64,000 nt of DNA from Nostoc sp. (GCF_036917455.1 NZ_JBALDK010000059.1:1466-65465), one strand, 5' to 3'; shown: positions 18,715 through 56,552, counted from the first letter of the stretch. Made by a program: numbers and translations. Notes: generated by a model not told the origin, from the letters alone.

Positions 18715-19074
18715 ATGCTTAAAACAAAGAATCGGCGCATTTTTCTATCTGCTTTTATTCCACCTTTAGGACAAAATCATCAAGCGGATAGTGAAAGCCA
18801 ATTAGCTCAACCTAAATTAGATTTATTGCAACCCTTACGTCAATGGCTAGACACAATTGAGATTCAGAATCGGAAATTAGCCAAATTTATTGCTAAACTG
18901 ATTCCCGCTCAGTGTCCATTCGAGCGTGATATCATGCTTTTTGGTCGCAAAGTAGCTCACATTCCACCAATGTGCAAGCTAAATCCGCTTTATAACGAAC
19001 TTGTGTACTTACGTTTTCGCGCTTTGTGTTATCTAGTAGATCAGTGTGGAGAAGATATTCAATCTTACTGCTGA
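18715..19074 (+). CDS. Stand-alone 'Mo-dependent nitrogenase C-terminal' domain protein (not a nitrogenase subunit)
   Basis: IPAQCPFERDI...HIPPMCKLNPLY..L..LRFRAL signature. Confidence 0.8.
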   Translation: MLKTKNRRIFLSAFIPPLGQNHQADSESQLAQPKLDLLQPLRQWLDTIEIQNRKLAKFIAKLIPAQCPFERDIMLFGRKVAHIPPMCKLNPLYNELVYLRFRALCYLVDQCGEDIQSYC

Positions 19075-35067: not shown

Positions 35068-36339
35068 ATGAACTCAAAATATAACTTTCAATACTTCCAA
35101 GGAAGCTCTCTTTCTGATTTGTTTGCTCAAGATATCACAGATGCATCTTATGGGTTTATCTTAAATTACCCTGCAACTGCGAGTTGGGCTGCTTATCCCA
35201 ACCGGAAAAAATATTTTATTCAAGATGGCAGTAGTGAAGCCACCAAAACCTCATTTGACAAGATTTGCCAAAAGGAATCTTGGAAAAATTTGGCTGTGTT
35301 AGGCGAGGGCATTCCTGGAATTGTGATTATTCCACCACCAAAGTTGCTGCTGGAATACTGGCAAGAGCATTTCGGATTTAATCACTCCAATATTGAGATG
35401 ATGGACTGCTCAACTTATCTAGACGATCTGGGCCGCAACGAACGCTTTGATAAACTCATTACTCTATTTCCCTTCGATGGTTTAAAAACCGAAAAACACG
35501 CTGTTGATTCAGACACCCATTACCGCTTACTTAGTAAAGTAACGCTAGACGAACTGGGCGTGCAATGTCCAAAATACAAAACCTACAATCTGCACCAAAT
35601 CAATCTCCAAGACATCCAGTTACCGCAATTTCCCTATTTAATCAAAACATCGCACGGACTCTCAGGAGAAGGCACTTATATCATCAAAAGTCCCAGCGAT
35701 CTAAACTACTGCCTTGAAGAAATTAGAAAATATCTTGCTATTAAATTGCTCGATACGATTATTGTCTCAGAGTTCGTCAAGAATGAGGTGCAAAATTACT
35801 GCGTACAGTTTTATATCAACAAAGCGGGGGAGATAACCCTCATCGGTACTACTGGACAACTCGTTACTCCAGAAGGCAACTATTTAGGGGGACTGATTGA
35901 CTACCGCAAAACTGACATGAGCAAGTTCTTTGAGATGATTGCCAACGTTGGTCAGTATGCTCACAAATATGGGTATTTCGGCGTGATTGGCTTTGATGTG
36001 TTGGAAAATCAAGATGGACAGCTTTTTGCAATCGATGCCAATTTCAGAGTTAATGGCTCGACTTCGTTGTGTTTGCAGCGCCATACTCTAGTGCGACTGG
36101 GAAAAGGAGTAGCTAAATATTCCGGTAGCTACCGAATGGAGGGGACATTAGAATCAATTCTCATAACCCTCAGACCAGAATTAGATCGCAAAGACTTGAT
36201 TATTCTATCGGCTTTGGAGAAAGTCAAATACGGAAAAATCTATACAGAACTTTATGCGATCGCTACTGGAGAAACTATCGAACAAATGCAGTCTATTGAG
36301 CAGAAATTACAGAATAAGGGATTACAACTAGTCTCTTAA
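35068..36339 (+). CDS. ATP-grasp domain protein of unknown function
   Basis: PYLIKTSHGLSGEGT, IVSEFV, GVIGFDV and AIDANFRVNGS. Confidence 0.8.
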   Translation: MNSKYNFQYFQGSSLSDLFAQDITDASYGFILNYPATASWAAYPNRKKYFIQDGSSEATKTSFDKICQKESWKNLAVLGEGIPGIVIIPPPKLLLEYWQEHFGFNHSNIEMMDCSTYLDDLGRNERFDKLITLFPFDGLKTEKHAVDSDTHYRLLSKVTLDELGVQCPKYKTYNLHQINLQDIQLPQFPYLIKTSHGLSGEGTYIIKSPSDLNYCLEEIRKYLAIKLLDTIIVSEFVKNEVQNYCVQFYINKAGEITLIGTTGQLVTPEGNYLGGLIDYRKTDMSKFFEMIANVGQYAHKYGYFGVIGFDVLENQDGQLFAIDANFRVNGSTSLCLQRHTLVRLGKGVAKYSGSYRMEGTLESILITLRPELDRKDLIILSALEKVKYGKIYTELYAIATGETIEQMQSIEQKLQNKGLQLVS

Positions 36340-36371: not shown

Positions 36372-37244
36372 CTACACTAGGCATTCTTGATAAACCCAAT
36401 TGTCAGGAATTCTTTCTAAAATCCCATAACCAAACACCTGATTCATTTTTAAATATTCCAGATGAACGTAACCAATATGACAGTGACAAGTTTGGTTGCT
36501 ACAAGGTTGATTAACCAAAGGTACTTCCCAGTCAGAATCATAAATATTACCAATAGGTTCTTTAATAAAATGACATCGGCGCATTGTCCCATCACCATCA
36601 ACAGAAATCGCTGATTTTCCAGCCCTACAAGAATGCCCAAAGCTAGGATAATGTTGAGTATTTAATTCATATAATGGGTCAATAGATTGGAAAAATTCTC
36701 GATTTTCTGGTGATAAATTAGGAAGTTCAGCCTTGACAGCATTAATCCACAAATAAACATGGTGTGGTAACTCCTGACGTAAAGCTGCTATTTCCGCTTG
36801 AAACTTGGGAAAACCGACAACTCCAACGCTGAATTTGACATTTTTGTTGTCTAAATTGAGGCATTTTTGTAAAAAGCGATCGCGTGACACCCATCCTGAA
36901 TGAAAAGTTGCCCAAAGTGCCAATTTATCTTTGTTACATTCATCTACCCAATCTAGCTGACAAGAGAGATTAGTTTGAATTGCGGCTTTCTTAACATTGG
37001 GCAATTGCGTTAATTTTACCAGCGCTTGCTGATACCAAGAATGGATTAGGGCTTCTCCCCAAGGAGTAAACAGAATTGAAAATTGATGTTGGGGATGTTG
37101 GGAAATCCAATTGACAAACCGTTCTAAAGATTGTTTATCGATTGCTAATTCTGCGGCTGTTTGTTGGCGTTTAGCAAAAGGGCAATATTCACACCCGTAG
37201 TTGCAACTGATTAAAGAACCGCGATAGAGAATGGTGAGGTGCAT
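36372..37244 (-). CDS. Radical SAM protein, STM4011-like
   Basis: SCNYGCEYCPF (CxxxCxxC) and a Cys-rich C-terminus (CRAG...CHF...CSNQTCHCHIG). Last gene of the module. Confidence 0.85.
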   Translation of the reverse strand: MHLTILYRGSLISCNYGCEYCPFAKRQQTAAELAIDKQSLERFVNWISQHPQHQFSILFTPWGEALIHSWYQQALVKLTQLPNVKKAAIQTNLSCQLDWVDECNKDKLALWATFHSGWVSRDRFLQKCLNLDNKNVKFSVGVVGFPKFQAEIAALRQELPHHVYLWINAVKAELPNLSPENREFFQSIDPLYELNTQHYPSFGHSCRAGKSAISVDGDGTMRRCHFIKEPIGNIYDSDWEVPLVNQPCSNQTCHCHIGYVHLEYLKMNQVFGYGILERIPDNWVYQECLV

Positions 37245-37266
37245 ATTAATAATGAGTTAAATTGCA

Positions 37267-37496
37267 TTATTCAGTAATAGAACAGTAGCGCCCGTGTATA
37301 TAGTTGTATCCGTATCCTAATTTTCCTTGCTGACCATAAATTAATTGACAGCATCGATTCTGGCTTTGACTAGAAAACTTGCCAAGCGTTGTTTAACACC
37401 TTCAATTCCACCTAAAACAACACCTTGTACTGGTGGCGGTGCTTCTTTGCCAAGTACAACATCAAATTCTCTCGGTTCATTTTGATTGTTTATCAT
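37267..37496 (-). pseudogene. Collapsed STM4015-like gene: N-terminal ~50 codons joined to the C-terminal ~15 codons
   Basis: GGAG RBS then MINNQNEPREFDVVLGKEAPPPVQGVVLGGIEGVKQRL...N* (37341-37496). A shifted frame continues YGQQG...YIHGRYCSITE* (stop 37267-37269), matching both ends of 42053..43306. Confidence 0.85.
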
Positions 37497-37577
37497 ATTT
37501 TCTCCAACGGTAGATGTAATGTAAATATCCGTATAAATGTGATTAATCGCTTCTAGACAAATCTTTTTGAAGCCTCA

Positions 37578-38921
37578 CTATTTCAACTCATAATCCTGCA
37601 TTAATTCCTGCACTTTCTCAGAAAATAACCACGTGCCAATAATATCAGAACGCTCAATGCCAAATTCAGTTAACTGCAAAATATCCTCATCTTTTATCGC
37701 CAAATTAAAAGCAAGCAGTTCTGAAAATTCTGGAAAATCAGCGTATACTTCACTATCAAATTGCTGACGATAGCTAGCACAATTCAATCCTTCATCGGAA
37801 AGCAAAGATAATAAAATATACCGCCGACGTTGTTCTTCAGCATTTAGTTGAAAACCATAGTGCGCGTAATCAAATGACTCATCTACTGTTTGAATATACG
37901 CTTGTAAAATCTTACTGATTCCCTTTGCTCCCACTGCATATTCGTTGGAGTAGTGCAAAGTATCGGTGTAGGAACGTGCGCCACAACCTAAACCAATCAT
38001 ACCGTCGGCTTGACAACAGTAAACGGGAGATGAGGAAGGAAGATTGCTACCTTGTCCTTCTTCTAAGCGTTGGAACATCCGCATGGAAACTTGCGTATAT
38101 CCTTTCGATAATAATAGCGATCGCCCTTCTCGATAACAAGCTAAACGAATATCATCCCATTCTTTATCTGTGCGTCCCAAACCTGTGAGCGATCGCACAT
38201 ACAATGGATATAAATAAATTTCTTCTGGTTGAAAACGCAAGGTAGCTTGTATTGATTGCAACCAAGTATTTACTGTTTGTCCGGGTAAACCGTAAATCAA
38301 ATCAATATTAAGCGTGGGAAATCCCATCTCTTTGATCCTTGTCAGCGTTGCTTCTACTTGGGTAGTAGATTGACGGCGCTGGGTTGCTAAAACTTCCGAA
38401 TCGATGAAGCTTTGGACACCAATACTAACACGATCGACGACGTGCGATCGCAACAGCTTTAACTTGTCCTCAGTGGCGGTTTCTGGCGAAACTTCTACAG
38501 AAATAGGAATTTCCTGTAAGTTTGCACCCATCGTATTTTCAGCAATATTGAGAATAGTTTTGAGATGCTGAATAGGTAATTGGGTAGGAGTTCCGCCACC
38601 AATAGCGAACCTAGCAAATGACGCATCACCCAACACCACTTTCATCCGTTGCGCCTGTCGGTGTAGTGTGTGGACATATTGATTCATAAAATCTTCATTG
38701 TAGCTGACTGTGGTAAACAGGTTGCAGAAACCACAACGCATTTCGCAAAACGGTATGTGTATGTAGAGAAATAGCGCTTGTCTATCTTGCTGCGCCCAAA
38801 GTTCTGGAAGATACACAGGTGGAGTTAGGGGACGATAAGCCGTTTTGTGGGGGTAAGAATAGACGTATGCTTGATAGGGAGACTGGGCGATTTTCGATTT
38901 AAGATTTTTGATTGTCAGCAT
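37578..38921 (-). CDS. HemN-like radical SAM protein, STM4012-like
   Basis: YIHIPFCEMRCGFC, GGGTPT, RVSIGVQSF, NIDLIYGLPGQ and IGLGCGA. Confidence 0.88.
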   Translation of the reverse strand: MLTIKNLKSKIAQSPYQAYVYSYPHKTAYRPLTPPVYLPELWAQQDRQALFLYIHIPFCEMRCGFCNLFTTVSYNEDFMNQYVHTLHRQAQRMKVVLGDASFARFAIGGGTPTQLPIQHLKTILNIAENTMGANLQEIPISVEVSPETATEDKLKLLRSHVVDRVSIGVQSFIDSEVLATQRRQSTTQVEATLTRIKEMGFPTLNIDLIYGLPGQTVNTWLQSIQATLRFQPEEIYLYPLYVRSLTGLGRTDKEWDDIRLACYREGRSLLLSKGYTQVSMRMFQRLEEGQGSNLPSSSPVYCCQADGMIGLGCGARSYTDTLHYSNEYAVGAKGISKILQAYIQTVDESFDYAHYGFQLNAEEQRRRYILLSLLSDEGLNCASYRQQFDSEVYADFPEFSELLAFNLAIKDEDILQLTEFGIERSDIIGTWLFSEKVQELMQDYELK

Positions 38922-39004
38922 AGAATTTCAAGTATTTTCGTAACAAGTTAAGAATTTGCTTTAAGTCTCACGCAAAGAATACCTCTGCGCCTCTGGGTGA
39001 GTTT

Positions 39005-39805
39005 TCATAAGATAAACTCTGCATAGGGAACAGTCCAAACCAAAGGATGGCTAAGTCGATGTCCAGTGTAACCATCTTCACCATAAGTTGTACCGTGGTC
39101 GGAACAGAGAATGCAAAAAGTAGAATGCCTTTGTCGTATAATATTCCAGAGTTTAGCTAATTGGCGATCGACATATTCCAAAGCTGCGGCGTGAGATTCA
39201 ATGGTATCGATTTTATCTTCTACATCGGTAAGATAGAAATAATTTGGTTGATGCAAAGCAGAAATATTTATAAATAAAAATATACGTTGATTGTTTGGCA
39301 TTTTTTCTAAAATATGTTGTGCAAGATTTACCTGATTTTCTGTAGATTCGGGGTTAGTAACTCCTAATTCTGGACTCCAATAACTTTCGGCAAACATTGA
39401 GGGAATTACATTACCTAAAGGGTTACGTTTGTTGAAAAAACCAACTCCACCAATGCAAACTGTATGATATCCCTTAGCAGCTAATCCATTAACAATATTT
39501 GAGTTATCTAACACACAAGTTGTATCAGTTGTAGTGGTACTTCCTTCAAATCCCAAAGCAAAAAGACGGGGGTGAATTCCAGGCGTTACAGGTGTGGGTA
39601 AAAAGCCTGCGAAAAACGCATGATGAGCAGCATAAGTGAAGTTTCCAGGTGAATGGCGTTCTTCCCAACCTGTTTTAGGGAGTACTTTTGCTAAGTTTGG
39701 AGTGCGTTTTTGTGCGAGTAGGTTTTTAGCTATGTTGTAACGCAATGTGTCTAGGGTAATAAATAAGATATCGTGAGTTCCGACGATTTCATTCATATTG
39801 AACAT
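39005..39805 (-). CDS. Alkaline phosphatase/sulfatase-superfamily hydrolase, STM4013-like
   Basis: FITLDTLR, PGNFTYAAH, HQP and CSDHG...GH metal ligands. Confidence 0.85.
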   Translation of the reverse strand: MFNMNEIVGTHDILFITLDTLRYNIAKNLLAQKRTPNLAKVLPKTGWEERHSPGNFTYAAHHAFFAGFLPTPVTPGIHPRLFALGFEGSTTTTDTTCVLDNSNIVNGLAAKGYHTVCIGGVGFFNKRNPLGNVIPSMFAESYWSPELGVTNPESTENQVNLAQHILEKMPNNQRIFLFINISALHQPNYFYLTDVEDKIDTIESHAAALEYVDRQLAKLWNIIRQRHSTFCILCSDHGTTYGEDGYTGHRLSHPLVWTVPYAEFIL

Positions 39806-39904
39806 AGAAGTAAAAATTATATTTGATAACTTTTAGCCACATAGATATTAGGTTCACGCAGAGGCGGAAAGACTAGCGAGAAACTTATCTGCTCATAAAA
39901 ATAT

Positions 39905-41077
39905 TTATTCTCTCTCTGTTCTCTGTGTCTTTGTGGTTCGTTCCAAAATTGTTTTAACTTCACTCATATAAGTATCCATTCCACTCCATAAAATACCCGG
40001 TAACAAATCGCCAAAAGCATTAATCTCTAAAATCGCATGAGTTTTCCAATCAGGTAAAATCAGTAAATCAACTCCACAATATAAACTATTAGGAAATAAC
40101 GCTGCTGCTTGTTCGCAAGTTCGCTTCATAATCTCCCAATTTTCTACACCAATTTTTGCTAAAAATTCCTCAGTATTTCCTCGTTCATTCCCCAAATGCA
40201 AATTTGTCATCGGACTTTTACCAAGACGAACAACGATATGCTGTGCTTCGCCATTGATAACCACCACACGAACATCAAACCCGCATTCTTGTAAATGTGC
40301 TTTGGGTAGCCATTCTTCAACTTGTACGCCTTCTGCTGTCAAAATGTTGATGATATCAGCGACTTCTTCGCGGTGAGTATAGTGTTTAATTTTACGGGAG
40401 TTGTAAAGTAGAGTTTCCCCATTTTCCCGTACTCGTTCGACGGTGGTAATAGCTGATTCAAAACGCGAATTTGCGCGGTAAGCCACAACTCCAGAAGCAG
40501 CCGAACCGTGGGAAAGTTTGACGAATACTCGTTCTATTCCCTGCGTTTGCATTTGTTCGCGTAAATGATCGTAGTTGTGAATTTTACCTAGCGATCGCGG
40601 AACGGGGATATTATGACGGCTGAATCTTTCGTGACAAGTTGGTTTGTCAAACATCACAGCGATGTCTTGGGGATGGTTCATGAACTCGCCATTTATGAGA
40701 AGGGGAGTAAGTTGTGTTTCCCATTTTTGCAAGAGATAGCGCCAACCTAAATACCACTGTCGCGGGTAGAGGATGAGTCCTTTGTCAAATTCTAATTTTG
40801 TCGCTGCTTCTGCACTGATACGTTGATGATTGGAAGTAGAAAAAATCTCTCTACTCCCTTCTGCAATGATGGCTTTATCAACATCAAAGTTTTTTTCTGG
40901 AGAGTCGAAGCGGATAATAGTGTTGGGTGTGTTGAATTGTTCGAGAGTTTGTTTTCCTGCTATTAAGTCGGCGTAATCTACTACGGTGACTGGTGGTAAC
41001 TTGAAATGGACTAGGGCTTCTTGGAGGAAACCGACACGGCGGTTTTCGGGATTGGCGATGAGGATGAAATTAAGCAT
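39905..41077 (-). CDS. ATP-grasp (RimK-like) protein, STM4014-like
   Basis: FVKLSHGSAASG, VEEWLPK, FDVRVVV and LEINAFGD. Confidence 0.82.
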   Translation of the reverse strand: MLNFILIANPENRRVGFLQEALVHFKLPPVTVVDYADLIAGKQTLEQFNTPNTIIRFDSPEKNFDVDKAIIAEGSREIFSTSNHQRISAEAATKLEFDKGLILYPRQWYLGWRYLLQKWETQLTPLLINGEFMNHPQDIAVMFDKPTCHERFSRHNIPVPRSLGKIHNYDHLREQMQTQGIERVFVKLSHGSAASGVVAYRANSRFESAITTVERVRENGETLLYNSRKIKHYTHREEVADIINILTAEGVQVEEWLPKAHLQECGFDVRVVVINGEAQHIVVRLGKSPMTNLHLGNERGNTEEFLAKIGVENWEIMKRTCEQAAALFPNSLYCGVDLLILPDWKTHAILEINAFGDLLPGILWSGMDTYMSEVKTILERTTKTQRTERE

Positions 41078-41092
41078 TATCTAATATATTCT

Positions 41093-41958
41093 TTATTCGT
41101 GGAGGGCAAAATAGCGAGAAGCACTATACCCGTAAGCTATCTCTTCTTGAGAATGAGCAATTAACAAACAATCAATAAGCGATGATTGTTTAATGTCGTG
41201 AATAAATTCTTCCGATACGGAATTGTGAGCAATATTAAGTGTATGTAGATTAATGATTGCTTGTGATTCAATAAAGCGTTCAAGCCTATGTCTGTCAAAT
41301 TTTCCATTGACAAATCAAGTACTTCAAGAGTTGCAACAATGGGAGATTCAGCCATAAAAGAAGATTGAGCGATCACATCTGCTATTGCATCACTATAATC
41401 GCTACTACACAAACCTAAATATCGTAAATTTGGGAATGATTCACTAAAAATAATTAGTTTTAAACTATCAATAGTATCATCATAGCTATGTTCAGAACGT
41501 ATACCCATCCATAAGTCAAAACACTCTAGTTTTGGTAAATCGAGTGAACAAAGGCAATAAATTGTGACATCGCTAATATTTGCTATCTCAACTGGATTGA
41601 TGATACCAGCTTGAGCATTGAGACTTTCGGCTGTCCAATCTTTTAAAGTTGTAAAAAACAACCAAGCTTCACACCATAAAAGTGCTTGCTTTCCTTTGCC
41701 TTCTGTTTCTTGCAATAGCTCAAGGGCAATTTTATAGATTTTCTGCGAGGAATCTTGCAATGCATCAATCACTAAATCTAAACCTACATTTCCATAATTT
41801 AATGCGTCTGACAGTGCAGCAAATTGCACCTCAAAAACTCCCATATTTAACCTATTTTTAACCCCTTGTATACCTCCTAAAACCACACGACTATTAAATG
41901 GTACTTCGCCATCAAGTACTGTATCAAATTCTCTGGATTGATTTAGATTATTATTCAT
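41093..41958 (-). pseudogene. Second STM4015-like LRR paralog, with an internal deletion and a frameshift near 41265
   Basis: Starts MNNNLNQSREFDTVLDG...VVLGGIQGVKNRL at 41958. Lacks the central region relative to 42053..43306. After LLN a shifted frame gives QAIINLHTLNIAHNS...SRYFALHE* (stop 41093-41095). Confidence 0.8.
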
Positions 41959-42052
41959 AGTTAAAAGTGAATTCATTAAGAGAAAGTTTTTTAACCCACG
42001 CATGGGGGTTTTGTCTGTGTAGCCGCGTCTTACAGTCACCTGATACTAAAGT

Positions 42053-43306
42053 TCACTCTGCAATAGAACAATAGCGACCGTGGATGTAACTATCCTCATC
42101 TTCTTGCTTCTGATTACTTACCAAAATACGCACATCCAATTCAGATAATTTATCAATCATCTCCTGAGATAAAAAGCTTTCGGAAACATTCAGAATATCG
42201 AGATAATTTGTCGCCGGACAATTGAGCAATTCTTCCGCACCTGCGTCACTCAGCGTCCCCATTGAAAGGTCAAGTACGCTGATAGAATTAATAATCGGAG
42301 AACCAACAATAACGCTGACGATTTCATTCGTGAATTGGCTATTACGTAATCCTAAATAAGTCAAGTTAGGAAATTTCCCTTCAAACAGAATCGGATTTAA
42401 ATCTTCAACCCAACAATCTCCGCCGTAATCTTCACTGCCAAACCATAATTCTAAATGTTCTAATGCTGGCAGATTCATATTAAAAACTTCTGCAACAGTA
42501 TCTCTACTTAAAGCCCCAGCTTCAACAATGAATGCTTTGAGGTGATTGTGTCGCACTTGGGGACTAAATTGTAAACCGTCCCCTCCACGAATTTGCAAAA
42601 TTTCAAGTTTGGGATAAGCTTGCAAAACCAGACTGATATTACTTTGTCGAATCCAAGAAATTTCACAATCATGAGAATCTATATCACCGATGAAAACAGC
42701 TTTGAGATTAGTTAAATATTTTTTAGCATCAACTAAAGCTTGGACAATGCTACTTGAATCCCTTTCGTATGCTTCCACCCATAAACCAAACACTAAAGCT
42801 TCTAATTTCTCGGCGTTGGGTTCTTGTAGTAGTCTACTAAGTTTACTCGGCAAATTATCCTCATACTCATAATATTCAGACCTAAGAGCGTAAGCATTAT
42901 TAACAGGTTCAACAATACCTATATTTGCATCGAAATCTACAATTTGCCGATTTGCAAATGAATTAACATTCATTGGATACTCATTTAATCTTTCTTCTAA
43001 ATTCCAAGGTTTATATGTTCGCAATGCTTGTATAACTTGCGCTTCTACTCTTGGCTTTAATAGTCGATAAGCAAAACGCTGCACCAACCTCGATTTATCT
43101 TGCAATCCTTGAATTAATAAATTCAACCCAGCATCACCATATTTCAAGGCTTCGCTAAGTGCAGTAACCCGCACCTGAGTAACAGGATTTGATAAATAAC
43201 GTTTAACTCCCTCAATTCCTCCTAAAACTACTCCATCCATAGGAGGCGGAGATTGTCCTCCCAACACTGCATCATAATCTCTGGGTTGATTTTGGTTGTC
43301 TGTCAT
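42053..43306 (-). CDS. STM4015-like leucine-rich-repeat protein with an N-terminal HEAT-like module
   Basis: LEALVFGLW, NLKAVFIGD, LPALEHLELWFG, FPNLTYLGLRNS and VLDLSMGTLSD repeats; C-terminus RYCSIAE. Confidence 0.85.
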   Translation of the reverse strand: MTDNQNQPRDYDAVLGGQSPPPMDGVVLGGIEGVKRYLSNPVTQVRVTALSEALKYGDAGLNLLIQGLQDKSRLVQRFAYRLLKPRVEAQVIQALRTYKPWNLEERLNEYPMNVNSFANRQIVDFDANIGIVEPVNNAYALRSEYYEYEDNLPSKLSRLLQEPNAEKLEALVFGLWVEAYERDSSSIVQALVDAKKYLTNLKAVFIGDIDSHDCEISWIRQSNISLVLQAYPKLEILQIRGGDGLQFSPQVRHNHLKAFIVEAGALSRDTVAEVFNMNLPALEHLELWFGSEDYGGDCWVEDLNPILFEGKFPNLTYLGLRNSQFTNEIVSVIVGSPIINSISVLDLSMGTLSDAGAEELLNCPATNYLDILNVSESFLSQEMIDKLSELDVRILVSNQKQEDEDSYIHGRYCSIAE

Positions 43307-43341
43307 AGTGCTTTACCTTTCAATTCTTTATTAGAATTCCC

Positions 43342-43380
43342 AAAAATGCGGAATATGCACACATCCAATGCATATTCCGC
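43342..43380 (-). terminator. Terminator-like hairpin in the leader of the STM4015-like gene
   Basis: Perfect 12-bp stem GCGGAATATGCA / TGCATATTCCGC followed on the minus strand by ATTTTT. Confidence 0.55.
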
Positions 43381-43436
43381 CCCGACTACTGGAAGCCGTA
43401 GCTACACAAACTAAGTCAGCTTGTACTCGTTCAAAT

Positions 43437-43465
43437 ATAGTACAATAGTTCTACTCTGTTGACAA
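43437..43465 (-). promoter_or_regulatory. Sigma70-type promoter overlapped by a cyanobacterial LexA box
   Basis: Minus strand TTGTCA-17 nt-TACTAT with TG just upstream of the -10. Plus-strand AGTAC-AAT-AGTTCT (43439-43452) fits RGTACNNNDGTWCB. Confidence 0.6.
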
Positions 43466-43588
43466 AAGTTGTGGGGGATTCCTTTGTTTATACTAGTAGG
43501 CGTGCCAATTGCCGTTAGTGGAAATTTAGTAGAAGATAGAGATGATTGTGCCACTTTTATATCCTGAAGAAATCAAAATTCTACACTT

Positions 43589-43801
43589 ATGGCAGAGTAT
43601 CAAAAAGCTGAATATCGTATTGGCAAAGATGGCAAAATTACTGAAACCGTAATTGGTGCTTCTGGTGCAGCTTGTACCAGCACAACATCTGGAATTGAAG
43701 ATGCTTTGGGAGAGGTAGAAACTCAAGAATTGCTTCCTGAATATTACGAAGGGCAAGAAAACGTGACAGGAACAGAACAACAGTCTCTCAAACAAAAATA
43801 G
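43589..43801 (+). CDS. DUF2997-like small protein
   Basis: EYRIGKDGKITETVIGASGAAC...IEDALGEV...PEYY. Confidence 0.75.
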   Translation: MAEYQKAEYRIGKDGKITETVIGASGAACTSTTSGIEDALGEVETQELLPEYYEGQENVTGTEQQSLKQK

Positions 43802-43812
43802 GAGAGATATAG

Positions 43813-44274
43813 ATGCTCGCAGACATCATATCAAACATCCAGGAAAGCGGAATGTTTTCTCTGGAAAGTGTTTTGACGATCGCAATCGAATTTTTGGCGT
43901 TACTTTTGATTATTCCAGCAATTAAGGCTGCGATCGCTTCTCAACCACACAAGTTAACACAAGCGCGATCACAAGCACAAATTGAATCACTAGAAAATGA
44001 ACTAAAAACAACTCATCAAAACTATTTAGAACAGCAGCAAAAAATACAACATCTGCTTTCTGAAAAAGCAGCACTCCATCAAGAAGGCTTCCGACTGCAT
44101 GAAGAATTACAGCAGCAACGTGTTGAACTATCGGAGGAATTTCGCACTTCCACATTTGAGCAATTGCAGACATTGCTGACAAACTATCCAAGCATCCACC
44201 AGATGTCGTATTCATTGGTCTTTTTCCCGCTTTTTGCAATGAATGAACAATCCATCACGGCAATCATCGAGTGA
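43813..44274 (+). pseudogene. Membrane-anchored coiled-coil protein, 3' end apparently replaced by an IS remnant
   Basis: TM segment plus Q/E-rich coiled coil. The last ~20 codons read through the antisense of transposase sequence. Confidence 0.55.
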
Positions 44275-48902: not shown

Positions 48903-51900
48903 ATGTTCTTGCCCCACTCATTTCTGCTAAGGCTTGCCCTAGAAAACACGATCGCACCGCCGCCCATCACAGTTACGCAAGATGTGCTGGTGACAGAGGC
49001 GATCGCACTTTTGAATTCCAGTTCTTGCAACTTCGATCCCGGTATGGGCGCTAACGACTGCACAGGCTGTTTAGCTGTAGTCAGTGAAAACCAACTGGTG
49101 GGACTGTTCAGCGAACGAGTGGTGACACGTCTTGTTGCCAGTGGGCGATCGCTCGCTGGAGTTACTTTAGCAGAGGTGATTGAACCACCAGCGATCGCCT
49201 TACGGCAATCTGAGTTAACTAATCCTGAGGTTGCCCTGAGCCTTTTAAGAAAACACCAGATTCAGCACTTGCCGATATTAGACGACAATGGGCAGTTATT
49301 AGGGCTGCTGACCTACGAAAGTTTATGCCGTTTGCTGCAACCTGTAGAACCCGATCGGCCAGATGAGGCATCAATCGCCGCTTTGAAACTTCAGACAGAG
49401 CAATCGCAGCTTTTAATGGCAGTCTCAACGCGGATTCGAGCTTCGCTGAGTTTGGCGGAAATACTCAATGCCACGGTGTCTGAAGTGCGGCAGTTTTTGG
49501 GCTGCGATCGCGTGTCGATCTATCACTTTTTGGAAAATGGGCAGTTCCAGGTCGTGGCAGAGTCCCTCGCTGTCGGTCAACGCTCCTTTGTCAGTGAAGC
49601 GATTTACGATCCTTGCTTTGCTCCAGATTGGGCAGATCGATATGGCCAAGGACGAGTGCTAGTAGTTCCCGATATCTATACGGCAGGGATGACCCCCTGC
49701 CATGTTGAGTTATTGGAGCATTTACAGATTAGAGCCAAAATTCTAGTGCCGGCGATCGTTAACAACCAATTTTGGGGGCTGGTTAGCGCCAGTGAATCGG
49801 CTGTGCCTCGTGATTGGCAATCGGCTGAGGTCACATTTTTAGAACAACTTGCCATTCAGGTGGCGATCGCCATTCAACACAGCGAAACGGCGACCCGATT
49901 CCAGCAACAGCGACAAGAGCTTACCGCATTGCTAGATTATTCCCCTGACGTGATTTTTCGGCTCGATCGAGACTTACATTACCTTTATCTCAACGCAGCT
50001 GTTGAGGTGGAGTTGGGCTACGCGCCTGAAGCGCTGATTGGTCAACCATTGCTCGCTGCCACCTTTGCCCCAGAACATTTTGCTGAGTGGCAAACTCTCA
50101 CTCAACGAGTAGCAGCAACCCGCCAAGAACAAACGAGTGAATATCAACTTTGCCTTCACTCGCGCTCCATCTGGTTTCAAACCCGTGTCGTTCCAGAATA
50201 TGACATGGATGGAACCGTTACGTCGTTTTTGTGCGTGGCGCGCAATATCACCCAAAAGAAGCAAGCTGAAGCTAGACAAGACGTTGATATAGGCGGCTTG
50301 CTAGAGTGGCAAAACCGCCATCATGCTGCCCAGCTAGCCACTAAGCAAGTGCTGTATGAATGGGATACATCCTCCGATCGCATGACGTGGGGCATCAATG
50401 CCGAGCAGGTGTTTGGCTATAGCGCCTCTGAAATGCCCCAGACATCAGCCGATTGGTTTGCTAACATTCATCCAGAGGATGAGAAGCGGGTGCAAACGGC
50501 CGCTGCAGAGTATTTTGAACATCAGGGACATCTCTACTTGCAATATCGGTGGCAACATCAGGCTGGCCATTACATCTGGATTGAATCTCAGGCACAGTTT
50601 TTTGCAGATGCTAACGCCAACTTAACTCAGATTATCGGGTATGTCACTGATATTAACGAGAGGAAAAGGTTAGAAGCCGAACGCACGCAGCTAGAAACTG
50701 CCCTCAGAGAAAGCGAAGCCCAACTCCGACAAATTTTTGACAACAGTCAGGATGTGTTTTTTCTCAAATCCCTCGATGGTAAGCAGATGATTTATACCAG
50801 CCTAGCCTGGGAATATCTTTACCAAACGCCGTTGCAGCAAACCTATGATAATCCTCAAGCTTGGCTCGATTTTATTCATCCAGATGATCGCGATGGCATA
50901 GCCACATTTGACAAGCAAGCTTGTCAAAGGAAAGAGGTTTGCTCCTTTGCCTATCGGATTATCCGTCCCGATAAATCCATTCGCTGGCTCTGGAACCGCA
51001 GCTTTCCGATTCGCAACGAAGCCGGAGAGATTTACCGTCTTGCTGGGGTCAACATCGATATTACTGAGCAAAAAAAACTGGATCTGGAATTAAGTGCAGT
51101 CAAAGAACGCTATCAACTCGCCATTCGGGGTATCGGCGAAGGAGTGTGGGATTGGGATATTGTCAGCGATCGCATCATTGCCAGCGATCGCTATTGGAAA
51201 ATTTTAGGCTACCCACCCCCAGCCAAAAACGCCTGCAAGTTTGCCTATGAGGTGCTTAGTGAAGAGATCCATCCCGACGATCGCGATCTGATGCAATTAA
51301 CCCTAAAAGGCCACCTAGAAGACCATCTGCCCTATGAAGTAGAATTTCGCAGACGTAAGCAATCAGGTGAGTATATTTGGTGTCGTTCTCGTGGAGAGGC
51401 AATCCGCGATCAAACTGGCAAGCCGATTCGCATGGTGGGAGCGATCGCAGATATCACAGAACGGAAAGCAATGGCAACTGCTCTACAAGCTAGTGAAAAA
51501 ACCCTGCGCCAGGTAGTCAGTACAGTTCCTGGAGTGGTTTATACCTATTGCCGTTCTGTGGATGGAACGAAAAGTTTTCGATTTATTAGCCAAGGTATTA
51601 TCAAGCTTTGCGATCGCACCCCAGAGGAAATCCTCAACGACTCCCAAGTGCTTTGGCATCTGATCGTTCCAGAGGATGGAGAGAGGGTGCGGGATTTGAT
51701 TGACCAATCTGCCGCAATGCTCACCCCTTGGACGGCTGAGTTTCGCCTGATAACTGCTAGCGGGGTCTTAAAATGGGTTTCCGGTCATTCCATCCCCTCC
51801 CGACAAGCAGATGGTAGTATTATTTGGCACGGCATTATAATTGATATTAGCGATGTCTACGACGAGCTTCGCTTACGCAAACAAGCCGAGCTAGAACGCC

Positions 51901-54900
51901 AGCGCAGCGAAGCTCTGCTTCAGGCATTTATCGCAGCCTCTCCAGTTGGGCTAACTCTGTTCGATCGGGAACTGCGCTACCTCTATGGCAACGAGGCATT
52001 AGCCAAAATGAATGACCTGCCATTAAGTGAGCATTTGGGACGCACCTTATGGGAAGTTTTGCCGAAAATGGCATCTCAGTTTGCTCCCATGCTGCTCCAG
52101 ATTATGGAAACCCAAGTGCCAGTTCTGAATCTGGAGTTTAGCGGTGAGGTCAAACCAGGTGAATTTCGCAGCGCAATCTCCAATCACTATCCTGTTTGTT
52201 TACCCAATAGGGAAGTAATCGGCGTTGGCGTATCCGTGATGGACATAACCGAACTTGTCCAGGCACGACAAAAACTGAGGGAAAGTGAAGCCCGCTTCCG
52301 TACCCTGGCAGACAACATTTCTCAGTTTGCTTGGATAACTGACGAACATGGCTGGATTGAATGGTATAACCAGCGCTGGTTTGACTACACAGGCACCACA
52401 CTGGCAGAAATGCAGGGCTGGGGATGGCAGCAGGTACATCACCCCGATCATGTCGATGGGGTAGTGAAGAAAATTAGCCACTGCTTTGAAACAGGCGAAA
52501 TCTGGGAAGATACCTTTCCCTTGCGCGGTGGAGATGGGCAGTACCGTTGGTTTCTCTCTCGTGCTATTCCCATCCGAGATGAACAGGGTAGGGTGTTGCG
52601 CTGGTTTGGCACCAATACAGAGATCACCGAACAAAAACAAACCGAAGTTGCTCTGCAAACAAGTGAGCAAATACTGCGTCAACTTACTAATATGGTGCCT
52701 GGAGCCGTCTATAAATATCAGCGCTTGCCGAGTGGGTCAAAGAGCTTCATCTTTATAAGCGAAGGTAGTGTCGATTTGTATGAATATACGCCAGAGGAAA
52801 TCCTCAAGGATATGCAAATCGTGTGGGATATTATTTTGCCAGAAGATATAGAACAAATCGACGCTTCCATCGATCGATCGGCTGCAACGCTCGAAGCATG
52901 GGAGATGGAGTTTCGCATCAGAACTCCTAACGGCATCTTGAAGTGGATTTCAGGACATTCTATTCCCTCTCAGGAAGAAGATGGCAGTATTATTTGGTTT
53001 GGCATCTTCACAGATATAAGCGATCGCAAACAAGCCGAGCTAGCGCTTCAAGCAAGCGAACGCCGTTATCTAAACTTAGCTGAACTATCACCAGTTGGCA
53101 TTTTCCACACCGATCCGAGCGGAGACTATAAATATGTCAATTCCCGCTGGTGTCAACTAGCAGGGCTGTCCTTCAAGGAGGCAATGGGCACGGGGTGGGC
53201 ACAAGCATTGCACCCCGAAGACCGCGATTGGGTCTTTCTCAACTGGCAAATATCTACCCAGTCCCAGACTCCCTTTTTAATGGAGTGTCGCTTTCAGAGA
53301 CCAGATGGAAAGGTGCATTGGCTGATCTGTCTGGCGATCGTTGAAACTGGTACCGCTGGCAACGTAATTGGCTATATAGGAACTATCACTGACATCACTG
53401 AGCGCAAATACTCTGAACAAGCTCTGCGAGAAAGCGAACAACGCTACCGCGACCTGGCAGAAGCAATGCCCCAGATGGTCTGGTTGACAGATGAAACAGG
53501 TGCCGTTAACTACTTTAACCAACGCTGGTATGACTACACGGGGCAAAGTCAAGCTGAGGCAATGGGATTGGGCGGAGCAGCAGCGATTCATCCCGATGAG
53601 CGCGATCGCACCCTCCAGGAATGGGGAGAAGCCATCACAACGGGCAAGTTATTTGAGATCGAATATCGTGTCCGTCATCATCAGGGACTATACAGCTGGT
53701 TTCTGGCGCGCGGAGTGCCAATCCAAAACCTAGCAGGAGAAATTACAGGTTGGGTCGGCACAATTACCGATATCGATGACTTTAAACGCGCAGAACTGGC
53801 ACGGAAACAAAGCGAAGCCCGTTTCCGTGCTGTGTTTGAGCAGGCAGCAGTGGGAATTGTGGAAATGGATGTGGCCGGTCGATTTTTGCAGGTTAATCGC
53901 CGTATTTGCGACCAATTAGGCTATACGGAAGCAGAAATGCTGGAGCTAAACTTCCAGAGCCTCATACCCAGACCAGATGATTTAAAGCTCTATTTAAACT
54001 ACTGGCAACAGCTTTTCGCCAAAAAGATTGATTCCTTTTCGCTGGAAAAATGTGTGCTTCACAAAAACGGAGAGTTACGCTGGTACAACATTACAGTGGC
54101 TTCAGTCCGTGATGCAGATAAAACCGTAAATTATTGTATTGGTGTAATTCAAGATATTCAGGATCGCAAACAGGCAGAACTGGCACTACAAGAGCTTAAC
54201 CAGGAGCTAGAAGCCAAAATTGCTCGACGCACAGCAGCATTGAGTGAGAGTGAAGTGCGCTATCGGTCTTTGTTTGAACAGGCATCTGTCGGCATTAGCC
54301 AATGTCACGCATCAGGACGCTATATCCAAGTCAATCAACGCTTTTGTGAACTGACTGGCTATACTCAATCTGAGCTACTGGAGATGTCTTGGCAAGACTT
54401 GATTCATCTAGAAGATCTGGAAGTAATCCAAGGTGAGTTGGCTCATTTACATCACGGTGAGTTGGCATCGATAACCCCTGAAATCCGCTATATCCGCAAA
54501 GATCGTCGGCTACAATGGGTTAGTCTTACAGTATCAATGCTGTATAACGCTGCGGGTACACTCATTGGTGACTTGGCGGTGGTGGAAGACATTAGCGATC
54601 GCAAGCACATTGAGCAACAACTCCAAAACAGCGAAAAGCGCCTCAAAAAAATCATTTCTAAGACAGTTGATGGCATCCTGATTCTAAATTCCCAAGGACA
54701 GATTCTTTTCAGCAATCCGGCTGCCGATCGAATTTTCAATTGCCAAAAGGCAGACTACCAGGGTGCAGATTTAGGAATTTCCATCACGCTCCAAAAGACG
54801 TTTGAACTGGAGATTCCGCATCCCACTGGCAGGGTGACTACAGTTGAAGTGCGCGTTGAGGAAATTACCTGGCAGGATCGTAAAGCCTTTCTAGCTGCGA

Positions 54901-56552
54901 TCCGAGATATCAGCCACCGCAAGCAAACTGAGATCGATCTGCAAGCAAGCGAGCTTTCCTATCGCACCCTAGCTGAAAACCTACCGGGAATTGTCTACAA
55001 GCTGTATCCCGCTCAAAATAATACATTTGTCTTTTTTAACGATCGCTTAATGACGTTATTCCAGCTTGACCCGATAGATATCGCCAATCAAGGCACTCTC
55101 TGCCCAGTCAACTCGCTGATTGTGCCAGAAGACCGCGATCGCGTTATCGAAGTAATTCAAGCCGCGATCGTCCATCAACAGCCCTTTCAGGTCGAATATT
55201 GCATTCAGATCCCTGCAACCGAAGAAAAACGATATTTGCTTGAGCAAGGCAGCACCGTAACTGACGACATTGGGCAAGCGTTGCATATTGTTGGGATTAT
55301 TTTTGATGTCACAGAAATCAAACAGACTGAGGAAAAACTTCGGAAGATTAATGAACGACTAACTATTGCCAATGCGGAACTCGCACGAGCGACCCGCCTC
55401 AAAGACGAATTTCTGGCAAACATGAGCCACGAACTTCGTACCCCTCTGAACTCCATCCTGGGACTGTCTGAAGTCTTGCAAGAAAGAACCTATGGCAATT
55501 TAACCGAGCAACAACACCACGCCTTAACCACAATTCAAACCAATGGTCAGCATTTATTAGAGCTAATTAATGACATTCTCGATCTAGCCAAAATCGAATC
55601 CGGCAAGCTATATCTACAAATGACAACCGTTTCAGTTCAGCAGCTTTGTCGAAGCACAATTCCTTTTATCCAACAGCAAGCCTTCAAAAAGCAAATTAGT
55701 TTTACCCTTGAACTGTCTCCCAATCTGACTTACATCGAGTTAGACGAACGACTTATCCGGCAGGTATTGATCAACCTACTCACCAATGCCGTCAAGTTTA
55801 CACCCAACGGTGGTGCTGTCATATTAAAAGTGCAAGGCAATGCACTAGAACAAACATTGAGCTTCAGCGCAATCGATACTGGCATTGGGATTGCTCCAGA
55901 AAATATTAGCAAGCTGTTTCAGCCTTTTGTTCAAATCGATAGCAATTTGTCTCGGCGTTATGCTGGTACGGGGTTAGGTTTAGCCTTAGTCCGACGCATT
56001 ATCGAGCTACACAAAGGCTCCGTGACGGTTCGCAGCACTGTCGGTCAGGGTAGCCAATTTACAGTGGTGCTTCCCTGGAAACACGTCAACCCGCCCAACT
56101 CAGACAAGTCTCTCGATCGCACCGCTGCTGTTATCCAAATTGCTTCAGAATTCTTACCTGTAGAAACAATGAATATAGCAGAGAAACCTGTCGTTCTACT
56201 GGTAGACGATAACCTGGATAACATTGAGACGCTAAAAGCCTATTTAGAATTGAAAGGGTTTAATATTGTAGTTGCTCACAATGGTTTGCAAGCGATTAAT
56301 CTCACCCAGACACAGTCCTTCAACTTGATTTTGATGGATATTCAAATGCCAGGGATGAATGGGCTACAAGCGATTCGCCAAATTCGATTGCAGGAGCAAG
56401 ACAAGCGCATTCCTATCCTAGCGATAACGGCTTTAGCTATGTCGAAGGATAAAGAACAGTGTTTAGCTGCTGGAGCGAATGATTATTTGACCAAGCCCTT
56501 CAGTCCCATCCATCTCGTCAACGTGATGAAAAAATATCTCCAGTTGTCGTAA
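48903..56552 (+). CDS. Giant hybrid sensor kinase: CBS pair-GAF(DXCF cyanobacteriochrome-like)-about 14 PAS/PAC-HisKA-HATPase-REC
   Basis: IQHLPILDD (CBS); DPCF and CH in the GAF; repeated DITERK/DISDRK PAC ends; MSHELRTPL, NLLTNAVKFT, GTGLGL and LMDIQMP. Confidence 0.93.
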   Translation: MFLPHSFLLRLALENTIAPPPITVTQDVLVTEAIALLNSSSCNFDPGMGANDCTGCLAVVSENQLVGLFSERVVTRLVASGRSLAGVTLAEVIEPPAIALRQSELTNPEVALSLLRKHQIQHLPILDDNGQLLGLLTYESLCRLLQPVEPDRPDEASIAALKLQTEQSQLLMAVSTRIRASLSLAEILNATVSEVRQFLGCDRVSIYHFLENGQFQVVAESLAVGQRSFVSEAIYDPCFAPDWADRYGQGRVLVVPDIYTAGMTPCHVELLEHLQIRAKILVPAIVNNQFWGLVSASESAVPRDWQSAEVTFLEQLAIQVAIAIQHSETATRFQQQRQELTALLDYSPDVIFRLDRDLHYLYLNAAVEVELGYAPEALIGQPLLAATFAPEHFAEWQTLTQRVAATRQEQTSEYQLCLHSRSIWFQTRVVPEYDMDGTVTSFLCVARNITQKKQAEARQDVDIGGLLEWQNRHHAAQLATKQVLYEWDTSSDRMTWGINAEQVFGYSASEMPQTSADWFANIHPEDEKRVQTAAAEYFEHQGHLYLQYRWQHQAGHYIWIESQAQFFADANANLTQIIGYVTDINERKRLEAERTQLETALRESEAQLRQIFDNSQDVFFLKSLDGKQMIYTSLAWEYLYQTPLQQTYDNPQAWLDFIHPDDRDGIATFDKQACQRKEVCSFAYRIIRPDKSIRWLWNRSFPIRNEAGEIYRLAGVNIDITEQKKLDLELSAVKERYQLAIRGIGEGVWDWDIVSDRIIASDRYWKILGYPPPAKNACKFAYEVLSEEIHPDDRDLMQLTLKGHLEDHLPYEVEFRRRKQSGEYIWCRSRGEAIRDQTGKPIRMVGAIADITERKAMATALQASEKTLRQVVSTVPGVVYTYCRSVDGTKSFRFISQGIIKLCDRTPEEILNDSQVLWHLIVPEDGERVRDLIDQSAAMLTPWTAEFRLITASGVLKWVSGHSIPSRQADGSIIWHGIIIDISDVYDELRLRKQAELERQRSEALLQAFIAASPVGLTLFDRELRYLYGNEALAKMNDLPLSEHLGRTLWEVLPKMASQFAPMLLQIMETQVPVLNLEFSGEVKPGEFRSAISNHYPVCLPNREVIGVGVSVMDITELVQARQKLRESEARFRTLADNISQFAWITDEHGWIEWYNQRWFDYTGTTLAEMQGWGWQQVHHPDHVDGVVKKISHCFETGEIWEDTFPLRGGDGQYRWFLSRAIPIRDEQGRVLRWFGTNTEITEQKQTEVALQTSEQILRQLTNMVPGAVYKYQRLPSGSKSFIFISEGSVDLYEYTPEEILKDMQIVWDIILPEDIEQIDASIDRSAATLEAWEMEFRIRTPNGILKWISGHSIPSQEEDGSIIWFGIFTDISDRKQAELALQASERRYLNLAELSPVGIFHTDPSGDYKYVNSRWCQLAGLSFKEAMGTGWAQALHPEDRDWVFLNWQISTQSQTPFLMECRFQRPDGKVHWLICLAIVETGTAGNVIGYIGTITDITERKYSEQALRESEQRYRDLAEAMPQMVWLTDETGAVNYFNQRWYDYTGQSQAEAMGLGGAAAIHPDERDRTLQEWGEAITTGKLFEIEYRVRHHQGLYSWFLARGVPIQNLAGEITGWVGTITDIDDFKRAELARKQSEARFRAVFEQAAVGIVEMDVAGRFLQVNRRICDQLGYTEAEMLELNFQSLIPRPDDLKLYLNYWQQLFAKKIDSFSLEKCVLHKNGELRWYNITVASVRDADKTVNYCIGVIQDIQDRKQAELALQELNQELEAKIARRTAALSESEVRYRSLFEQASVGISQCHASGRYIQVNQRFCELTGYTQSELLEMSWQDLIHLEDLEVIQGELAHLHHGELASITPEIRYIRKDRRLQWVSLTVSMLYNAAGTLIGDLAVVEDISDRKHIEQQLQNSEKRLKKIISKTVDGILILNSQGQILFSNPAADRIFNCQKADYQGADLGISITLQKTFELEIPHPTGRVTTVEVRVEEITWQDRKAFLAAIRDISHRKQTEIDLQASELSYRTLAENLPGIVYKLYPAQNNTFVFFNDRLMTLFQLDPIDIANQGTLCPVNSLIVPEDRDRVIEVIQAAIVHQQPFQVEYCIQIPATEEKRYLLEQGSTVTDDIGQALHIVGIIFDVTEIKQTEEKLRKINERLTIANAELARATRLKDEFLANMSHELRTPLNSILGLSEVLQERTYGNLTEQQHHALTTIQTNGQHLLELINDILDLAKIESGKLYLQMTTVSVQQLCRSTIPFIQQQAFKKQISFTLELSPNLTYIELDERLIRQVLINLLTNAVKFTPNGGAVILKVQGNALEQTLSFSAIDTGIGIAPENISKLFQPFVQIDSNLSRRYAGTGLGLALVRRIIELHKGSVTVRSTVGQGSQFTVVLPWKHVNPPNSDKSLDRTAAVIQIASEFLPVETMNIAEKPVVLLVDDNLDNIETLKAYLELKGFNIVVAHNGLQAINLTQTQSFNLILMDIQMPGMNGLQAIRQIRLQEQDKRIPILAITALAMSKDKEQCLAAGANDYLTKPFSPIHLVNVMKKYLQLS
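51850..51878 (+). repeat. SDR5-like 21-nt element inserted in frame into a HIP1 site inside the kinase gene
   Basis: GCGAT-[GTCTACGACGAGCTTCGCTTA]-CGC-AAACAAGCCGAGCTAG. The empty paralogous site GCGATCGC-AAACAAGCCGAGCTAG is at 53020. Confidence 0.85.

Follow-up and report, generated by a model that had tools for sequence, protein, structure and literature searches.

A copy of the STM4011–STM4015 cassette in Nostoc sp. and a possible role for the glutamate-ending tail of its leucine-rich-repeat protein

Among the described systems that come closest to the locus considered here, an STM4011–STM4015 cassette in a stretch of 64,000 nucleotides from Nostoc sp. (GCF_036917455.1, NZ_JBALDK010000059.1:1466-65465), are that of LysW, a small (~54-aa) zinc-finger protein, and those in which PQQ derives from PqqA and mycofactocin from MftA. 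It is also known that RimK adds Glu to S6, a ribosomal protein, at its C-terminus (PMC10375531, PMC7343187) and that RimK and LysX/ArgX act on a Glu that stands at the C-terminal end of an acidic tail (PMC10375531, PMC7343187; PDB titles). In the following, the whole stretch of 64,000 nucleotides is called the window, and coordinates given without a prefix are positions within it. The type locus of the cassette in Salmonella has the layout ompL-STM4015...STM4011-HAD-typA and occupies a fixed site of chromosomal type, with ompL and typA on either side. Full-text literature searches with the gene names, the model numbers and the domain combinations gave no functional study of STM4011–STM4015, the genes being mentioned in expression or selection tables only. 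This agrees, as does the comparison with PADLOC described below, with the initial annotation of the window, where the five-gene set had been taken as one without an assigned function. We propose, in a reading that we hold to be as probable as its opposite, that the enzymes of the cassette modify the invariant Glu-ending tail of the cassette's own leucine-rich-repeat (LRR) protein, with the ligase extending the tail.

The cassette in the window and its inheritance

The locus is an intact copy of the widespread STM4011–STM4015 cassette. It consists of seven co-oriented minus-strand frames, running from 43306, where the gene LRR1 starts, to 36372, where STM4011 stops. In this order the frames are LRR1 (STM4015 family, 417 aa; 42053..43306), an LRR fragment of 292 aa (LRR2, the pseudogene of an STM4015 paralogue; 41093..42039), the STM4014 ATP-grasp ligase (390 aa; 39905..41077), the STM4013 hydrolase of the alkaline-phosphatase superfamily (266 aa; 39005..39805), the HemN-like radical S-adenosylmethionine (SAM) enzyme STM4012 (447 aa; 37578..38921), the remnant of a third LRR paralogue with 51 N-terminal codons (37267..37496) and the small radical SAM enzyme STM4011 (290 aa; 36372..37244). 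When compared with the NCBIfam models of STM4011–STM4015, the five full proteins all exceed the curated cut-offs and cover essentially the full model length, with 290 bits for LRR1 (NF038076, cut-off 275), 428 bits for STM4014 (NF038074, cut-off 175), 432 bits for STM4013 (STM4013/SEN3800, NF038075, cut-off 250), 617 bits for STM4012 (NF006067, cut-off 380) and 412 bits for STM4011 (NF038073, cut-off 200), while a Pfam scan of the cassette proteins gives generic domains only. The host genome holds a single copy of the cassette. The complete operon of STM4011–STM4015 type that had been annotated in the window is thus borne out by the hidden Markov models, and the invariant residues of all four enzymes are present, as was claimed for their catalytic motifs.

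LRR1 is the sole intact STM4015-family gene in the host genome. LRR2, which matches NF038076 with 76 bits at model positions 137-232, has lost ~122 aa in frame and carries a frameshift near 41262 when it is aligned to the intact orthologues in loci L008 and L001, with its tail ...SASRYFALHE* surviving in another frame and ending at 41093. The third copy is reduced further, to its 51 N-terminal codons (37496..37341) and an out-of-frame tail ...YIHGRYCSITE* (tail frame 37392..37267), with ~1 kb of the middle deleted; the same position between STM4012 and STM4011 holds intact LRR orthologues in loci L001-L011. Both the LRR pseudogene (42039..41093) and the collapsed LRR gene (37496..37267) that the initial annotation had reported are therefore real. 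Because the other two LRR copies have decayed, only LRR1 can serve in the host strain, which has a minimal, partly eroded version of the cassette with one working LRR.

To see how the genes are arranged elsewhere, 139 loci were collected with the ATP-grasp and the hydrolase as queries, and the module layout was read across 63 diverse loci. The phyla represented among the 139 are Cyanobacteriota, Myxococcota, Planctomycetota, Chloroflexota, Acidobacteriota, Actinomycetota and Pseudomonadota. Two modules, one of LRR and ATP-grasp genes and the other of the hydrolase, the HemN-like radical SAM and the small radical SAM genes, are present in at least seven phyla: one to three LRR genes adjoin the ATP-grasp gene in nearly all of the 63 loci, and the genes of the second module are always contiguous and often overlap. 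The two modules run either co-directionally or convergently, and LRR genes are also scattered between the enzyme genes in cyanobacteria, in Gemmataceae and in part of the myxobacteria. Twelve genomes have no ATP-grasp gene within 10 kb of the hydrolase gene, and in 7 of the 12 it is found elsewhere in the genome. Moreover, among 301 evenly sampled Myxococcota genomes the hydrolase exceeds the cut-off in 71 and the ATP-grasp also in 71, these being the same genomes, in several of which the two genes lie on different contigs. The five genes are inherited together, and both the module layout and the 71 shared Myxococcota genomes support the co-occurrence as a unit that had been assumed for them. 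At 90% identity the hydrolase forms more than 6,300 clusters. Two further candidates were rejected. The apparent fusions of LRR and ATP-grasp genes in Myxococcota are long open frames that arise as high-GC artefacts, the genes being separate; and no PDZ substitute stands beside the trio of the second module in the loci where the LRR/ATP-grasp pair is missing (L082, L099, L126, L131).

Two features are specific to the cyanobacteria: arrays of LRR paralogues whose evolution outpaces that of the enzymes, and a common N-terminal module. The Nostocales loci have 2-7 LRR paralogues each, with 33-54% identity to LRR1; the positional orthologue of LRR1 is 73-82% identical and the enzymes are 82-94% identical. 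The rate of amino-acid-changing substitution (dN) of LRR1 is 3-4 times that of the enzymes, with a gene-wide ratio to the silent rate (dN/dS) of 0.17-0.30, which is not above 1. The rapid LRR turnover that had been suggested for the locus thus holds for the copy number and for the amino-acid rate, and does not hold for dN/dS. The N-terminal module of the cyanobacterial STM4015 proteins, ~100 residues long, consists of a peptide that is conserved and disordered and, after it, HEAT-like helices.

A few observations can be added on this module. It follows the pattern M..NQNQPREYDAVLGG..PPP..GVVLGGIEGVK and then the HEAT-like helices, being encoded in the window at 43007-43306 (minus strand). It occurs in 377 protein clusters in total, and fusions of it with WD40, GUN4, pentapeptide, SUKH-like and FGE-like or FGE-sulfatase domains are encoded within the cassette or next to it (for example L004:7772-8980, L011:5754-6965, L002:6799-7512, L081:1826-7636 and L087:14195-17515). 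In the host genome the module is confined to the three LRR genes or remnants of the operon. A Glu tail motif on the non-LRR proteins that carry the module was looked for and is absent.

The glutamate-ending tail and the cassette enzymes

LRR1 is made up of the N-terminal module (residues 1-100), an LRR core of RNI/NLR type, an acidic linker and the end ...RYCSIAE. It matches PDB entry 2RA8 with an E of 4e-37, which is a structural-genomics entry from Bacteroides fragilis for an uncharacterised STM4015 homologue. A fold search with the AlphaFold2 model of LRR1 (mean predicted local distance difference test score, pLDDT, 88) also returns 2RA8 first and then the LRRs of NLR and RNI proteins.

The tail that we propose as acceptor or substrate is the heptapeptide R411-Y-C-S-I-A-E417, with its codons at 42056..42076 (minus strand). 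When the C-termini of LRR proteins from all phyla were read, an acidic stretch, R-Y-x-x-V-x-E and the stop codon followed one another in nearly all of them. The counts were made in 214 STM4015 genes whose 3' end is complete. A terminal Glu is present in 197 of the 214 proteins and the terminus R[YF]x4E in 190, with Ser or Ala at position -4 and Val or Leu at position -3, so that the consensus in most phyla reads R-Y-x-[S/A]-[V/L]-x-E-COOH; most of the exceptions to the motif are cyanobacterial paralogues with frameshifts or in decay. On average, Asp/Glu make up 26% of the 20 residues that precede the motif (-27 to -8). The motif occurs in 272 of the 25,979 stop-to-stop frames that the loci and the window contain, and the frames that bear it are LRR genes or remnants in each locus inspected, except for one chance match of 90 aa in L047. 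Even the two decayed LRR copies in the window keep the tail in a shifted frame, as RYFALHE* and RYCSITE*. Among 73 diverse STM4015 sequences there are only six invariant columns, which are four structural Leu/Gly positions together with R411 and E417, Y412 being nearly invariant. In the AlphaFold2 model residues 401-417 of LRR1 have a pLDDT of 45-58, i.e., they are predicted to be disordered. Since the most conserved polar residues lie in a tail that is predicted to be disordered, they have the signature of a linear motif or of an enzyme substrate rather than that of a structural element. This fits the guess of a protein adduct made in the initial annotation, with the LRR protein's own C-terminal tail as the likely substrate.

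The ligases that are nearest in fold to STM4014 activate the Glu/Asp carboxylates of proteins or peptides. With the AlphaFold2 model of STM4014 (pLDDT 93), the best PDB folds found by Foldseek are 3vpb (ArgX with LysW), 4iwx, 5zct, 5k2m and 3vpd; the fold matches include RimK, RimK with RpsF, LysX/ArgX with LysW-gamma-AAA (aminoadipate) and LysX, as well as the graspetide ligases PsnB and MdnC, which modify peptides. A profile of 32 members of the STM4014 family finds Thermus LysX with an E of 1.8e-3 and then RimK, and the match to LysX runs through the shared motifs DK.. and D.RV.V..R..TN. All invariant ATP-grasp residues are present in the STM4014 of the window. When scored against the family models, the protein reaches 34.2 bits with TIGR00768 rimK_fam (cut-off 143.4) and 15 bits with the LysX equivalog TIGR02144 (cut-off 275.6), thus falling short of both. 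Based on the modelled fold and the sequence motifs, STM4014 is predicted to be a ligase of RimK/LysX type that belongs to a separate family and is not itself a member of RimK or LysX. Its partner protein, STM4015, ends in Glu, and the tail that carries this Glu is acidic and flexible.

STM4013 matches Pfam Sulfatase with 39 bits (cut-off 25), the matches to Phosphodiest and Metalloenzyme lying below their cut-offs, and its weak matches in the PDB are to sulfatases and NPP. It retains 58-70% identity across phyla with 100+ invariant columns, among which are D19, T57 (in FTYAAH), H185 and D236-H237 of the metal-site motif SDHG. By its likeness to the NPP motif T-x-P-x-H, T57 is the probable nucleophile, and in its FTYAAH and SDHG motifs this small, cytoplasmic protein resembles the Thr-nucleophile branch of NPP and not the formylglycine sulfatases. 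No formylglycine site is apparent in it, because T-Y-A-A-H, which follows the logic of the NPP-type T-x-P-x-H, stands in the place of C/S-x-P-x-R. For the same residues, the idea that STM4011 is an anSME-like maturase of STM4013 was rejected.

In both radical SAM enzymes the Cx3Cx2C motif is intact. STM4012, with C59/C63/C66 and GGGTPT invariant, matches the HemN structure 1OLT with an E of 2e-30 and scores 145 bits against the hemN equivalog TIGR00538, whose cut-off is 325; it is thus HemN-like and not HemN. In STM4011 the invariant Cys residues among 57 sequences are C14/C18/C21 together with C206, C224, C248, C253 and C255, and in the Cys-rich C-terminal region the spacing C206-x12-G219-x4-C224 fits the SPASM/twitch signature Cx9-15Gx4C. 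The weak matches of STM4011 are to the peptide and protein maturases HxsB and anSME.

In the mechanism that we propose, STM4014 would activate the terminal Glu carboxylate of STM4015 as an acyl phosphate and would then ligate an amino acid or an amine to it. This step is modelled on RimK with S6 and on LysX/ArgX with the carrier LysW, and by that analogy we regard it as rather more credible than not. For STM4013, STM4012 and STM4011 two scenarios can be envisaged, and that the trio acts in one of them is a tentative suggestion to which we give slightly less than an even chance: these strictly co-inherited enzymes would either carry out a remodelling, of the tethered adduct or of the tail's Tyr/Arg, or make the moiety that is ligated. 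The remodelling is favoured by the SPASM-like radical SAM enzyme and by the interspersed LRR genes, and the synthesis of the moiety by the higher conservation of the trio and by its occasional occurrence without LRR and ATP-grasp. The LRR domain would be the variable part that binds the target, and the tail the constant part for the enzymes. As a speculation on the chemistry, the propionate-like side chain of Glu might undergo an oxidative decarboxylation of HemN type.

Alternative readings, the upstream region and the neighbouring genes

The intergenic region upstream of the cassette (43307..43588, minus strand) contains a promoter-like site (43465..43437), a match to the LexA consensus, and a leader hairpin. 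The initial annotation had named a candidate SOS promoter there and had pointed to a role in DNA damage or against phage. The consensus match stands: the LexA-like box at 43439-43452 agrees with the cyanobacterial consensus RGTACNNNDGTWCB, of which the window has 3 matches compared with 0.3 expected by shuffling. The conservation does not, as the ~140-bp segment bearing the box is missing in five of the seven close Nostoc loci (L003, L005, L006, L011, L053) and mutated in the other two (L004, L046), conservation in the relatives being confined to the ~70 bp that immediately precede the ATG of LRR1; control by SOS was rejected for this reason. The flanks hold housekeeping genes (minCD, fmt, GST and two-component genes) with no defence island. 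A comparison with PADLOC-DB 2.0 gives partial matches to the radical SAM cores only (PDC-M51A 42 bits, pVip 21 bits), and the LRR, ATP-grasp and hydrolase proteins have no match there. In the phage collection the hydrolase marker was found in no genuine phage, the three matches being two unannotated fragments of 2-6 kb and one Salmonella contig. With the box not conserved, the flanks housekeeping, no PADLOC system and no phage that carries the marker, nothing here supports the link to damage or phage, and a defence annotation was rejected.

Some side observations on this region are as follows. The hairpin (43380..43348, minus strand) has a 13-bp stem followed by the T-run ATTTTTGGG and lies in the 5' leader ~40 nt before the start of LRR1; it resembles a terminator or an attenuator, and only a short version of it is conserved in relatives. 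A riboswitch or known RNA was considered for the leader and rejected, with no Rfam match at E <= 1 and the hairpin conserved in part. The further exact matches to the LexA consensus are at 5022-5035 (plus strand) and 18996-19009 (minus strand).

Now we turn to the points that weigh against the modification of the LRR tail by the cassette enzymes. The ligation step and the adduct are predictions from sequence and modelled structures; the substrate class of STM4014 is read from the fold alone, because the protein scores far below the RimK cut-off; what a phosphoesterase of the alkaline-phosphatase superfamily would do on a peptide tail is not obvious; STM4011 has no Pfam SPASM match at E <= 0.01, the only match being to Radical_SAM (E 0.0064); and the Salmonella STM4015 ends in ...DGDIYMNAMYTE, which means that not every STM4015 tail has the R-Y part, the truly general features of STM4015 being the acidic linker and the terminal Glu. 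Of the same kind is the occurrence of parts of the cassette on their own. Streptomyces yaanensis has the hydrolase and both radical SAM genes with no LRR and no ATP-grasp, and the hydrolase is present without the rest of the cassette in four genomes, where stand-alone STM4013-like proteins ~60% identical to that of the window (L083, L108, L115 and L127 in G001, G005, G009 and G010) are found with no STM4011, STM4014 or STM4015; these may reflect a role of STM4013 outside the cassette or incomplete metagenome-assembled genomes. Since the trio or the hydrolase can occur without LRR and ATP-grasp, the enzymes may also act on a free metabolite. Moreover, the trio keeps 47-70% identity across phyla, far above the LRR and ATP-grasp genes, and this high conservation suits a universal small-molecule substrate. 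The conservation of the trio and the occurrence of the trio or the hydrolase on their own speak for a pathway for a free small molecule (such as a modified nucleotide, a tetrapyrrole-like compound or an amino acid), in which the LRR protein would act only as scaffold, as regulator or to give specificity, and its tail, instead of being modified, would be a docking handle or pseudosubstrate for the ATP-grasp; it is also in keeping with such a pathway that HemN relatives and NPP enzymes mostly use small molecules. However, the ATP-grasp and the hydrolase co-occur perfectly in Myxococcota, the enzymes nearest to the ATP-grasp in fold all use carboxylates of proteins or peptides, and the invariant terminal Glu is the acceptor type used by the RimK/LysX clade. 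On balance we consider such a pathway unlikely, though it deserves to be kept in mind.

A different possibility is that the cassette serves immunity or conflict, as a system in which the diversifying LRR proteins, together with the WD40, pentapeptide and GUN4 proteins that carry the N-terminal module, sense invaders and the response is given via the tail. This is compatible with the tail chemistry. The distribution in cyanobacteria is patchy, as 4 of 201 sampled genomes carry the cassette and two congeneric genomes lack it; the number, decay and turnover of LRR paralogues in Nostocales loci, the 3-4-fold dN of LRR1 relative to the enzymes, its NLR/RNI-like fold and the fusions of the N-terminal module to sensor-type repeat domains would also be consistent with it. 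By contrast, the gene-wide dN/dS is below 0.3 or thereabouts at its upper end (0.17-0.30 for LRR1), the LexA-like box is not conserved, PADLOC recognises only generic radical SAM cores, the flanks are housekeeping, and no neighbour recurs across the diverse loci except DUF6745. In addition, the marker hydrolase is in no genuine phage and rare on plasmids (15 of 72,556 plasmid records, mostly megaplasmids), and the Salmonella site between ompL and typA is fixed, so that we judge an immune system to be improbable. More improbable still is a precursor of the type found for ribosomally synthesised and post-translationally modified peptides (RiPPs) or for cofactors, where the radical SAM enzymes would cross-link or trim the tail (Tyr...Glu) and a small product would then be excised. 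The short tail does have a conserved Tyr and Glu, STM4011 is SPASM/twitch-like, tandem precursor-like genes stand ahead of the enzymes, and PsnB and MdnC, two RiPP macrocyclases, are similar to the ATP-grasp. Yet the cassette has no conserved protease or exporter, a variable folded domain of 290 aa with a constant tail inverts the leader/core logic of RiPPs, and the Tyr of the tail is not conserved in Salmonella. Returning to the modification of the LRR tail, its most far-reaching form would make STM4015 a new class of folded carrier or receptor, the Glu of which is extended by the dedicated RimK/LysX-like ligase and rebuilt by the two radical SAM enzymes and the phosphoesterase into a C-terminal modification not seen before, and which in Nostocales would serve a receptor-like surveillance with a constant 'warhead' or signal, installed enzymatically, on expanding arrays of variable binding proteins, namely the LRR paralogues and the relatives in which the N-terminal module is joined to WD40, pentapeptide, GUN4 and FGE-like domains. 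We offer this extended form as a conjecture that is probably wrong in at least some part.

Concerning the neighbouring genes, an LdmS-like ATP-grasp gene (35068..36339, plus strand) converges on the cassette, 32 bp from the stop of STM4011, with 104 bits against a cut-off of 475. It was considered as a sixth member and rejected: as it is absent from all other cassette loci searched, it is a neighbour only. When other conserved neighbours were looked for across the 63 diverse loci, only DUF6745 recurred. A DUF6745 protein, often with a different LRR N-terminus of its own, adjoins the cassette in 23 of the 63, in Planctomycetota, Chloroflexota, Streptomyces and Chamaesiphon (L059:11215-12312, L104:13293-14342, L094:16964-17986, L136:5380-6420); the two DUF6745 genes of the host genome are unlinked to the cassette (C230:15443-15958, C152:15832-16218), and full-text searches found no functional literature on DUF6745. 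Divergent from the cassette are a DUF2997 gene (43589-43801, plus strand) and a gene for a 153-aa protein (43813-44274, plus strand). This pair keeps its position in many Nostocales loci (L001-L006, L046, L053) and follows STM4011 in L054 and L058, which may be simple synteny or a link with the cassette. Finally, we note an open reading frame of 2,549 aa at 48903-56552 (plus strand), which lies among genes of two-component signalling.

Comparison with known systems

A cassette with two radical SAM enzymes is thus widespread from cyanobacteria to Salmonella, being present in about a quarter of the sampled Myxococcota, and no published function was found for it. With a disordered Glu-ending tail and a LysX/RimK-like ligase, the question of a C-terminal modification of STM4015 can be asked directly. 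If the proposal is true, a new protein C-terminal chemistry or carrier pathway would stand beside RimK-S6, the tubulin tails and LysW, and it would be explained why complex bacteria retain arrays of LRR genes.

The nearest relative is the Salmonella STM4011–STM4015 locus itself, which shares with the window the order of the enzyme genes and a terminal Glu of the LRR protein after an acidic linker. The Salmonella STM4015, however, ends in ...EPDDYDGDIYMNAMYTE without the R-Y motif that is present in the copy of the window; the window in turn has the extra N-terminal module of ~100 aa on its LRR protein and the tandem, interspersed LRR paralogues, two of them decayed, while the HAD phosphatase gene of the Salmonella cassette is not in the cyanobacterial copy. 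With RimK and RpsF, STM4014 and STM4015 have in common that the ligases belong to the same structural ATP-grasp clade and that the target ends in Glu on an acidic flexible tail (PMC10375531, PMC7343187). By contrast with RimK, STM4014 is ~100 aa longer, has a dedicated LRR protein as its partner, does not reach the RimK model, and is co-inherited with two radical SAM enzymes and a phosphoesterase.

LysX/ArgX with LysW is the best structural match for STM4014 (3vpb, 5k2m, 3vpd), and the likeness extends to an acidic, Glu-ending carrier, to adjacent genes for carrier and ligase and to further enzymes that act on the tethered group. The carriers themselves differ, the EDWGE motif of LysW standing against the LRR protein STM4015 with R-Y-x-[SA]-[VL]-x-E, so that only the terminal Glu and the acidity are common, and none of the kinase, reductase, aminotransferase and peptidase of the LysW pathway is in the cassette. 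Similarly, STM4011 is like PqqE, MftC and anSME in its Cx3Cx2C motif, its Cx9-15Gx4C spacing and its extra Cys residues, and a tail with Tyr and Glu is encoded nearby, as for PqqE/PqqA and MftC/MftA; it differs from them in that it has no Pfam SPASM match, that neither an RRE/PqqD-like domain nor a peptidase is seen, and that its substrate would be a large folded protein.

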